Shown: one piece after another, positions 24,001 through 27,000 of the stretch
Numbering within the stretch: the stretch's first letter is position 1
Layout: the number at the start of each line of letters is the position of its first letter
Position numbers: made by a program
Origin: a virus
Lineage: Duplodnaviria; Heunggongvirae; Uroviricota; Caudoviricetes
Direction: 5' to 3' (one strand)
IMG/VR virus record: IMGVR_UViG_2839594473_000007
Length of the DNA stretch: 48,110 nt

Positions 24001-27000
24001 CTTACCATCCACCCGGGTGGCTCCACGGCAGATGGTCCAGATACCCGCACCATCACGGTATGCTGTGGTGTGGTTACCTTCCTTTTCATCCAGAAACTGG
24101 TCGAGGATTTCAGGCGCAGAAGCACCTGCGGCAATCAGCGCCAGAACGGCAGCCGATAAACCATAGCGGAGTTTCCTGCTCATCAGCTTACTCTCCCCGT
24201 GCCGCCTTACGCCGGTCTTCTTTAATCTTGAAATACAGGTTCGTCAGATATGTCAGCAGCCCAAACAGCAGACTCCCCAGCACGCCTATTGCCGCCCACT
24301 GAGACGGGGAAACCCTGTCCAGCAACTGCAGGAACCAGTAGCCCGTTCCCACCGCTGACGTGGTGTATGACACACCTGTTGTGATTTTTTCCATCTGGTA
24401 CATACCCCGTCTCCCGCAATCCGGAAGCTCACAACAATAAAAAAGACCACCGGCACACACCGATGGTCCCTGACGCATGCTTACATCATCATGTCGCTGT
24501 CCGGTGTGGGGTCACCGCTATCTGAAGCACTCCCCTCACCCGCGATGCCTTCCGGCTCCGGAGCTGCCGGTGCGCCCAGCAGCTCATCCAGAATGGCATC
24601 AACCTCTGCATCAAGACGCGCTTCCAGGTTATGGCGAAGTTTCTGTTTCAGTGCGCTCCGGACTTCTTCAGAGCGCAGGACTTCCTTCACTGCTTCAGCA
24701 GTGACCAGGGATGTAATTTCTGACATGGGATTTTCTCGTCGAAAGATGTGATTAAGAAAGTTGCCGCTAAATGAGCGGCTCTTCGGGTTTGCTTCCGGCT
24801 GACTGACTGGCGCTGATTTTCTCAGCGGCCCTTTTGTCAATCTGTCTGCGCCAGAAGTCACGCATGGCCCTGTACCCACCCGAAAGGAGATACAGCACAC
24901 AGACCACCGTACAGAAGTACAGCATTAACTGGTTCAGAAATGTCATAATTTCTTTCCGTTATTGTTGACAATAAGAACTGTTTTCATTTAAAAAACCAGA
25001 GCACGAAAGTATCGTTCCTTTATTTTTTCTCCATAGGTATTACCACCGCCAGCGTCCATTCCTGTCGCTGGCGGTTTTTTTTATCATGCCGCAGTGTCTG
25101 TGTTGTTCACTTCCACCGCAATGCTGTCAATCAGCACCGGGTAAGTCGCACCTTTGGTAATGTCTGTCACATGCAGTTTATCCGCCGCAAATGCACTGAC
25201 CGGTGACTGCGTCAGCGTGAACGGTGTGCCATCCTGACCATCAATAACCGGCGTCACCTGAAGGCTGTTATTCCCGGCAAAGCGGAAGGCCAGCGTATGC
25301 CATTCGTTATCAAATGCGCCAAAGGTTCCCAGTTTCAGGTTGTTTGTCGCCACTTTCGCATTGTGGTACATCACATTCAGGTCTTTTGCATCTGTCTGGA
25401 TGTAGAACGCTGCCAGCAGGTTATTCCCCCCGTCTCCGGTCAGGGCAACGCCCTGTGGCAGTGAAGATACCGGCCAGTAAAACGCCATAACATACTGGTT
25501 CGCAGCCAGCACTCCCGAAACCTTAAAGCGGCAGCGAATCTGCCCCCCTTTCTGTAACAGAGCCGCACCGTTGCCCGCGGCGTACTCCAGCACCCAGCTG
25601 CTTTTACCGGCTTCCTTGGTCAGCTTCACTGCCTTACCTCCGGTTCCCTCCGCATCGCTGACCACTTCTGCCCTGCCGCCACTGGCTGACCATCCCTGTA
25701 CTTTCAGGCTTCCCTCTGACTCGCTGGCAAGGTAAGAGAGCAGTGTTGTGACGCCTGTGGCTTCTGCACCGGAAGGCGATGACGGGCGCACCTCTGATAC
25801 TGTCGATGATGCCCCCGCGTTTAGCGCCACTCTTCCCGCATGGCGCAAAATCGCCGTTGCCAGACGGTCGGAAATAATCCCACGGCGTGCCCAGGCGCTG
25901 AAATGGCTCGCCCTGTCCTGTGACGTCCAGGTGGCTGAGCTGTCACGCCATTTCGAACCGTAATATCCGATACCCGGAATGTCCGGGTCTTCTTCCGGTT
26001 TGTTCGTCGGCACATTCACCCCATTCTCATCCGTCATGAACGGTACGAAATGGATATTCTTTTCCGTTTTGTTTTTGTAGCTGCCGTACACCGTCTGGTA
26101 CGAGGATTCGTTCTTCTGCTTCCAGAAATACGTCGTGTCCCCGCATATCCAGGGAACACCGTCAGCAGAGCCACCGACGCACTGACCTGCCATATCCGCC
26201 AGGTCTGCACGGAATTTATCAACCAGCGCACCAAACTGTGCTGCGTGATTTGCCGGCGTACCGCCAAAATCAAATTCCCCCTGCATCCACACCACGGCAA
26301 ACAGCACATTTTTCGGATTCTTCTTCAGTGCTGCTTTTGTTCGACCGATAAGGTCCTTATACAGCGGCTTGTCCACACCCCAGCGGGTTGAATTCTCCGA
26401 GGCACCACTCGCGTCACTGTATGTGCCATCGGCTCCGGTGGTGAACGCTGAACCACCACGACAGCACGGAACCAGCAGAATGCCCGCATTCGCCGGTATA
26501 AACGGCAGCAATTTTTTGGCGATATGCAGCCCCTGCCCCACGGTTCCGTACTGCCCCTTTGACAGGTCCGCTTTCGGATGGTTAAGGCGGCTCATGTCCT
26601 GCACATCATGCAGACAATGGTCCGCCGGAATGATGTCGTTATATTTACAGGCGACACCGCCCGGTGTCACCGTACTGCGACGCGCCAGCTGCTTAATGCG
26701 CGGGTCCGGACGGTCATATGTCTCCGGCAGCGGAAGACCTTCACCATACGACATGCCGTTTGACTGCCCTGCCAGAACCACAACAAAGTAATACCCGGGG
26801 TCGCTGGTGGCGCTGATTACTGCACCTTCTCCACCTGTCAGCTTCACCACAACAGGTGTGCTCACATCACCTTCTGCGACAATCGCCTGAATAAGTGCTG
26901 CGCCATCATCCGTATACGAAGAAAACGGCCCACCGTATGGTTGCCATCCTTCACGAATTTTTTGCGCAAGTGCATCAGCAAGGTCTGACGGCGATGCCGC

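Follow-up and report, generated by a model that had tools for sequence, protein, structure and literature searches.

The 48,110-nucleotide (nt) DNA of the Caudoviricetes virus record IMGVR_UViG_2839594473_000007 from IMG/VR, which we refer to as the window, carries two small genes between a nanS-p-type esterase gene and the holin gene, and we analyzed what these two genes may do. The first encodes a 59-amino-acid (aa) membrane protein of the DUF1378 family and the second an 81-aa acidic protein of the DUF826 family. We found that DUF1378 genes recur inside or directly against the lysis cassettes of Enterobacterales phages, a context for which we found no description in the literature searched. 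This recurrent placement, together with the parallel to two known lysis co-factors, the Mu releasin and the LambdaSo protein Lcc6, is what is new here, and it supports a lysis-related role for DUF1378. By analogy with these co-factors, DUF1378 could be a non-essential accessory lysis factor acting at the inner-membrane step, a proposal that we put forward tentatively and rate a little short of an even chance.

Both genes lie on the minus strand, in a stretch that is 100% identical to the Shiga toxin 1 (Stx1)-converting phage AP005153. The DUF1378 gene occupies 24767..24946 (59 aa plus stop, MTFLNQLMLYF...) and the DUF826 gene 24481..24726 (81 aa plus stop, MSEITSLVTAE...), with a gap of 40 nt between them. 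An earlier note, made from the sequence of the window, had placed two open reading frames (ORFs) at 24481-24946 between nanS-p and the holin gene, and translation bore out these coordinates. Its descriptions of the products held as well, since the 81-aa protein is acidic (isoelectric point (pI) 4.2, 18 D+E vs 7 K+R) and the 59-aa protein has one hydrophobic segment by hydropathy and one continuous helix in the AlphaFold model. The same note had called the shorter ORF missed by the ORF track. This is true of the track of that scan, in which the 59-aa frame was absent because it fell just below the 60-aa listing cut-off, but the gene was already annotated, without a function, in GenBank and RefSeq, as ORF B78 in AP005153 and as 'DUF1378 family protein' in NC_010237 and E. 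coli RefSeq genomes. The RefSeq name of the 81-aa product is 'DUF826 domain-containing protein'.

Both products match curated families over their full profiles. Residues 1-59 of the DUF1378 protein align with positions 1-59 of the 59 in PF07125 (134 bits, E 2e-39), and residues 1-75 of the DUF826 protein align with positions 1-75 of the 75 in PF05696 (136.6 bits, E 3e-40), where the curated Pfam cut-off for both families is 25 bits. They also correspond to PHROG 494 and PHROG 311, respectively, both filed under 'unknown function', and NCBIfam has no model matching either protein. The conservation of the reading frames in related phages, which the earlier note had named as a check, was clear, as both frames are kept in 309 (DUF1378) and 306 (DUF826) phage records. 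Across 84 copies from the fetched loci, the ratio of nonsynonymous to synonymous substitution (dN/dS) was 0.21 for DUF1378 and 0.10 for the N-terminal 51 codons of DUF826, compared with 0.14 for the neighbouring holin gene, and the variable sites at codon positions 1/2/3 numbered 20/14/34 and 6/3/24, respectively. Because the variation falls on the third positions of precisely these two frames, the overlapping antisense ORFs annotated in some records can be dismissed. Homologues from other genera, at 30-50% identity, begin at the same place and have the same length, and a purine-rich, Shine-Dalgarno-like GG(A/T)(A/G)AG is conserved 6-8 nt before the DUF1378 ATG in diverged variants. Both ORFs are therefore genuine genes under purifying selection. 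In E. coli they are also common: the block from the esterase 3′ end to the holin gene was found at a coverage of at least 80% in 987 of 5426 complete genomes (about a fifth), with up to 14 matching places per matching genome.

Word-based searches returned DUF1378 and DUF826 sequences from Escherichia and Shigella only, a scan of IMG/VR with an E. coli-type alignment returned near-identical loci only, and a profile search of genome contigs with the same type of alignment gave no confirmed relative. The distant contexts were reached via phage BUCT709, a search of representative proteins and contig look-ups. The family is small, since the exhaustive profile search of 1.84 billion representative proteins recovered just 43 relatives at E ≤0.001. 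Among the 14 contexts that could be read, 12 place DUF1378 inside or against the lysis cassette, the arrangement in the window being counted as one of them. Outside E. coli, the gene almost always closes the cassette, packed tightly and directly behind the spanin or endolysin gene, and its gap to the preceding lysis gene is about 40 nt or less, with some stop/start overlaps, which leaves no space for a separate DUF1378 promoter.

The individual arrangements are as follows. In BUCT709 and 24 IMG/VR loci, the order is pinholin, an endolysin of the signal-anchor-release (SAR) type, Rz/Rz1, DUF1378 and tailspike, and the DUF1378 start overlaps the Rz stop. Two further loci (L124/L125) have Q, a lambda-type holin, a soluble lysozyme, DUF7940, an Rz-like gene, an overlapping DUF1378, a 68-aa acidic DUF826-like protein and then terminase, while L126 has muramidase, DUF7940, Rz and DUF1378 in this order. 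DUF1378 follows Rz in L117, with the terminase genes slightly further on. A one-piece spanin, a pinholin and a lysozyme precede DUF1378 in L128, where a 76-aa acidic protein and a tailspike come next, and L127 is similar; in L130, DUF1378 stands between a lysozyme gene and the spanin-like DUF2570. Species-representative genomes of Pantoea, Phytobacter, Kosakonia and two Rosenbergiella species gave the same picture, as an Rz-like gene ends no more than about 12 nt from the start of each of the five DUF1378 genes. The association with lysis genes thus recurs with different holin, endolysin and terminase types, in five Enterobacterales genera. Since the cassette makes up a few percent of a phage genome, this placement is, by a rough comparison, far from random, with the limit that the lineages are not independent. 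The DUF1378 family is restricted to Enterobacterales phages, and its usual home is the lysis cassette.

Several unannotated or little-described genes were seen in these contexts. BUCT709 (OM816835.1) carries an unannotated 71-aa S21-type pinholin gene directly upstream of its endolysin gene (L005:2721-2936) and an unannotated embedded Rz1-like lipoprotein ORF (3697-3891). DUF7940, a small protein with two membrane helices, is encoded between the endolysin and the spanin in several of the cassettes closed by DUF1378, at L124:3271-3477, L126:3186-3449 and L141:3261-3458, and it may be another component of the lysis cassette, perhaps a holin or antiholin. The acidic proteins that follow DUF1378 at L127:567-794 and L128:4184-4414 (75-76 aa, pI 4.7-4.8, Ala/Val/Glu-rich) have no DUF826 profile match and share the position and charge of DUF826.

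The DUF1378 protein amounts to one long helix. The best 19-residue Kyte-Doolittle window covers residues 3-21 (mean 1.98), and the membrane helix spans about residues 4-24 and ends in a conserved S-G-G-Y. No charge precedes the helix, whereas the 20 residues that follow (26-45) form a basic juxtamembrane helix with a net charge of +4, and the pI of the whole protein is 9.2. AlphaFold modelled a single continuous helix over residues 2-50 with a short disordered tail. By the positive-inside rule, we predict an N-out/C-in single-pass inner-membrane protein with a basic cytoplasmic helix. The core of the family reads L-Y-F...V...L-Y-L-x-(S/A)-G-G-(Y/W)-x-x-(I/V)-R. A sequence search of the PDB with DUF1378 gave chance-level matches only (TRAP-gamma membrane helices), and neither DUF1378 nor DUF826 matched a holin family in the Pfam and PHROG scans.

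Two characterized lysis proteins resemble DUF1378 in architecture and genomic position. The first is the Mu gp25 releasin, a membrane-tethered cytoplasmic protein of 99 aa with a predicted N-out/C-in topology, which is needed to release the SAR endolysin of Mu and whose family (DUF2730) occurs together with SAR endolysins as well as soluble ones (PMC9239132). The gp25 gene stands between those for the spanin and the small terminase subunit, and DUF1378 holds this same spanin-to-terminase position in L117 and L124. DUF1378 likewise has an N-terminal membrane helix, for which an N-out/C-in topology with a cytoplasmic tail is predicted, and it is also found with SAR and with soluble endolysins. 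However, gp25 is longer, with a 73-aa cytoplasmic domain, and Mu is holin-less while the phage of the window has a pinholin. The position also differs in the window, where DUF1378 precedes the holin gene, two genes ahead of that for the endolysin and with a terminator in between, whereas its distant homologues lie downstream of the endolysin gene. Both families also show a 'GG..W/Y-AMR' look where the membrane helix ends, which had raised homology between them as a candidate explanation of the likeness, and this was rejected: hhalign of 21 DUF1378 against 17 DUF2730 sequences gave a probability of 0.1% (E 0.5), and DUF1378 had no match to PF10805 (DUF2730) at E up to 0.1.

The second protein is Lcc6 (SO_4795) from LambdaSo, a prophage of Shewanella oneidensis, and has 65 aa, with a membrane helix spanning residues 5-22 and then 43 aa of cytoplasmic tail; it is strictly required for pinholin-dependent depolarisation and for lysis by pinholin and SAR endolysin (bioRxiv 10.1101/2024.01.23.576932). 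The same work located its gene near int/xis, far from the cassette, and asked whether other lambda-like phages carry such factors. DUF1378, with 59 aa, a helix at about 4-24, a 35-aa tail, and a pinholin and SAR-like endolysin next door, would fit this description, although the match is one of architecture only. In contrast to Lcc6, which is essential and distant from the cassette, the pair in the window stands beside the holin gene and is dispensable in natural relatives. Since such relatives lack the gene, a strict Lcc6-like requirement for DUF1378 is unlikely.

Small proteins encoded in or beside lysis cassettes are well known to set lysis timing, as for the antiholins S21-71, lambda S107 (dual start), T4 RI + RIII, P2 LysA and P1 LydB. 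The dual-start type is the longer product of the holin gene itself, unlike DUF1378 and DUF826, which are separate genes without a holin-family match. T4 RIII is a small cytoplasmic protein that works with the membrane/periplasmic RI (PMC8385771), and the membrane DUF1378 with the soluble acidic DUF826 would loosely parallel this arrangement. The holin gene of the window also has two in-frame starts, ATG 24403 and ATG 24394 (M1-Y-Q-M4; 24392-24403, minus strand). For lambda S and S21, the longer product is an antiholin by virtue of an extra N-terminal positive charge (PMC9636201), whereas the three-residue extension M-Y-Q is uncharged, as is the variant extension M-N-Q, which leaves room for a separate regulator. 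In phage YYZ-2008, which is without the small-gene pair, the upstream holin ATG is missing (I-H-Q-M).

Based on these parallels, we propose the following scheme. The pair would be transcribed late, with the toxin, esterase and lysis genes, once the Q antiterminator allows read-through of the terminators in this part of the window. DUF1378 would sit in the inner membrane with its tiny N-terminus in the periplasm and its basic helical tail in the cytoplasm, would act at the step of holin triggering and release of the membrane-tethered endolysin, and would in this way tune the timing of lysis. DUF826 would most likely be cytoplasmic and might, as partner or regulator, attach to a basic tail, either that of DUF1378 or that of the holin. 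The earlier note had suggested that the pair may modulate lysis. For DUF1378, the 12 of 14 contexts give this suggestion reasonable comparative support, while DUF826 is weakly supported and loosely tied to lysis, and the pair as a whole is dispensable. A wider version of the proposal, in which DUF1378 would be a new sequence family of inner-membrane lysis co-factors, counterparts and possibly distant relatives of Lcc6 and counterparts of releasin, that is built into the lysis cassettes of many Enterobacterales phages, acts when the holin triggers or the endolysin is freed, and in the lambdoid/Stx prophages of E. coli sets the lysis clock together with DUF826, and with it the amount and timing of toxin/phage release, is speculative by comparison, and we consider it possible but on the unlikely side. 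In Stx-producing E. coli, the toxin accumulates and exits at prophage lysis, so a gene that shifts the timing changes the amount of toxin and phage released; for the present pair, such an effect on toxin release can only be inferred. Releasin and Lcc6 show that the lysis machinery can include more than holin, endolysin and spanin, and DUF1378 is an obvious next candidate.

The part of DUF826 in this scheme is much less certain than that of DUF1378. The N-terminal domain (1-51) is strongly conserved, with 41 of 51 residues invariant in an alignment of nine sequences, and AlphaFold modelled helices at residues 2-17 and 20-50, with a mean predicted local distance difference test (pLDDT) score of 89-95 over residues 21-50 and values below 50 for residues 56-74. 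The tail is disordered, acidic, proline-rich and variable in length and sequence, and almost always ends in MMM, MML or TML. It occurs (24481-24573, minus strand) as two main alleles, of 30 aa (...DSDMMM) and 39 aa (...ESVMML), which are both acidic and otherwise dissimilar. The conserved hydrophobic last three residues could serve as a docking motif or a degradation signal. A fold search with the DUF826 model against viral predicted structures returned no match at E ≤0.001, a PDB sequence search gave chance-level matches only (tail spike, DGCR8), and a profile scan with the DUF826-like protein of L124 gave no match. DUF826 adjoins DUF1378, in either gene order, in four unrelated contexts, so that it is a frequent neighbour but not an obligate partner. 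The idea of a cytoplasmic partnership is weakly suggested by this adjacency and by the complementary charge of the two proteins (pI 9.2 vs 4.2). The sequence P0180 is a natural frameshift fusion in the DUF1378/DUF826 context.

The annotation of DUF826 also needs correction. The same frame can be read as a 139-aa version with a GTG start inside the DUF1378 gene (24481..24900, minus strand), which is ORF B79 of AP005153 and seeds PHROG 8301. We rejected this reading on the third-position variation and because the distant homologues all begin at an M-(S/A/P)-E motif, which identifies the 81-aa form as the real DUF826 gene. In phage PhiR12_4, the DUF826 gene is labelled 'head completion protein'. 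Both the 139-aa ORF and this label look like annotation artefacts.

Several observations weigh against a lysis role for the pair. In the window itself, a terminator separates the two genes from the holin gene. Elsewhere, Mu-like prophages carry the block of esterase, DUF1378 and DUF826 at their right end, between gin and mom, and in one lineage DUF1378 follows a tail-fibre assembly gene; neither site has a holin nearby. DUF826-like genes also occur without DUF1378 nearby and, when alone, have no association with lysis. The releasin parallel is, as stated above, not one of homology, and in the literature searched we found no experiment on DUF1378 or DUF826, whose function is stated there to be unknown. 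The pair is also missing from related phages and from many E. coli genomes. Phages YYZ-2008, H-19B and 434, which have the same holin/endolysin type, match the query block over the holin gene only; the S21-type holin is present in 434 phage records and DUF1378 in 309, which leaves about 125 without it; and 2435 E. coli genomes match the query, of which 987 have the pair and the rest mostly have holin-only best matches. In YYZ-2008, moreover, the PasA small-RNA gene lies between esterase and holin (bioRxiv 10.64898/2026.05.13.724894). The 448-bp interval of this phage has no comparable ORF and no similarity to the window, and with PasA in it the esterase-holin interval emerges as an exchangeable slot with at least two unrelated fillings. 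The pair-less relatives with the same cassette type imply that any lysis role is non-essential, modulating rather than required.

These points lead to the strongest alternative, namely that the pair is exchangeable cargo of the 'moron' type, unrelated to lysis and with a function such as envelope change, phage exclusion, or that of a small membrane toxin with an acidic antidote. We consider it possible but on the unlikely side. The non-homologous content of the slot, with PasA in YYZ-2008, speaks for it, as do the hairpins that bracket the pair, including a conserved terminator downstream, the transfer of esterase, DUF1378 and DUF826 between gin and mom in Mu-like prophages, and the occurrence of DUF826 alone. 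In the tail-fibre lineage, the pair stands beside O-antigen-type acyltransferases; a reversed gene of this type adjoins in some members and a DNA methyltransferase gene comes next in all, while DUF826 precedes DUF1378 in some members and is absent in others. The interval between lysis and terminase genes, where many DUF1378 genes reside, is also a classic cargo site. However, a consensus scan found no sigma-70-like promoter on the coding strand upstream of the pair, although weak promoters or other types may escape such a scan, and no defence-protein model in PADLOC matched either protein at E up to 1. The distant relatives also speak against it: in 10 or more further lineages, DUF1378 directly adjoins or overlaps the lysis gene before it, on the same strand, which amounts to operon membership and not to an independent cassette, and this association recurs with different holin, endolysin and terminase types. 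If the pair has no lysis role, the results still correct database entries and mark the esterase-holin interval as an exchangeable cargo slot.

It is improbable that both proteins serve the NanS-p esterase, as a membrane tether, a help in its exit or a regulator. Such a link would explain why esterase, DUF1378 and DUF826 moved as a block into a Mu-like prophage, and why about 300 phage records have a closely related esterase (at least 80% identity), close to the 309 with DUF1378. Yet at least 10 DUF1378 lineages have no such esterase nearby, phages with a more divergent esterase lack the pair, and tight linkage in E. coli is expected from proximity in one recombining module. Finally, that the frames are chance openings, or that only one of them is a real gene, might be raised by the 76 ORFs of at least 25 aa on both strands of 5.5 kb, but it is effectively refuted by the full-length matches to curated families, the purifying selection with third-position variation in these frames, and the homologues at 30-50% identity with unchanged starts and lengths.

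In lambdoid phages, Q-modified polymerase reads through intrinsic terminators. Between the DUF826 stop and the holin start, the window has an intrinsic-terminator-like hairpin (24433..24471, minus strand) with a 13-bp stem, a 4-nt loop and a T run. We compared 21 distinct versions of this region from 77 loci; the 21st is without a spacer, as a frameshift fuses the reading frame. The hairpin with its T-rich run is present in 19 of the 20 spacer versions, and the one exception folds into a hairpin that lacks the T run. The stem is built from no fewer than three different sequences, so it is the structure that is conserved and not the sequence. In the lysogen, the terminator probably keeps Q-independent transcription from reaching the lysis genes. 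The esterase gene is up by 1-2.4 logs on mitomycin C induction (PMC10462455), which fits late, Q-dependent expression of this stretch. A small hairpin, CTTCCGG-attg-CGGGAG (24411..24427, minus strand), overlaps the holin Shine-Dalgarno sequence just upstream of both holin starts and, following the lambda S paradigm, may tune the choice between them.

On the other side of the pair, a GC-rich hairpin (25046..25083) comes right after the esterase stop and is preceded by an A run on the coding strand, which places the T run of a terminator on the opposite, plus strand. Diverged variants retain the A run and the hairpin, with changes in the sequences of stem and loop. On the plus strand, a perfect TTGACA is present at about 24966-24971, about 110 nt upstream of the plus-strand T run, and the diverged variants retain both. 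These elements could belong to a small antisense or convergent RNA of about 85 nt on the plus strand, ending near 25082. The candidate region (24960-25083) has no clear -10 box and no match to an Rfam family.

The full gene order of the locus, all on the minus strand, runs from the esterase gene through the GC-rich hairpin, DUF1378, DUF826 and the terminator to the holin, endolysin, Ant-like and Rz genes, with Rz1 embedded in the last. The NanS-p-like gene at 25084..27030 (minus strand) encodes a SASA/DUF6645 carbohydrate esterase of 648 aa according to the ORF list and the RefSeq naming in relatives. The S21-type class II holin (pinholin) gene lies at 24188..24403 (minus strand; 71 aa) and matches PF04971 (E 7e-33) and PHROG holin families, and the endolysin gene at 23650..24183 (minus strand; 177 aa) matches PF00959 (E 6e-25). 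The N-terminus of this endolysin, MSRKLRYGLSAAVLALIAAGAS, is weakly hydrophobic and Ala/Gly-rich, which is typical of a SAR domain, and we provisionally assign it as such. A literature search by locus tags (L0106, L0107, ECs1208 and others) found nothing relevant.

The convergent small RNAs AsxR and AgvB (Tree et al. 2014) were considered as occupants of the esterase-holin spacer and rejected, as they are placed between stx and the esterase gene. The window has a full-length match to the Rfam small RNA STnc100 (27253-27462, minus strand, 176.7 bits) immediately upstream of the esterase gene, in agreement with the place described for AsxR/AgvB in the region 3′ of stx. STnc100 has been linked to PasD, a prophage small RNA, in a 2026 preprint. 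Further Rfam matches are an ALIL pseudoknot, a frameshift element of the IS3 family, at 35664-35780 (minus strand), and the lambda cIII thermoregulator at 40794-40852 (plus strand), which suggest that other parts of the window contain an insertion sequence and an early region like that of lambda.

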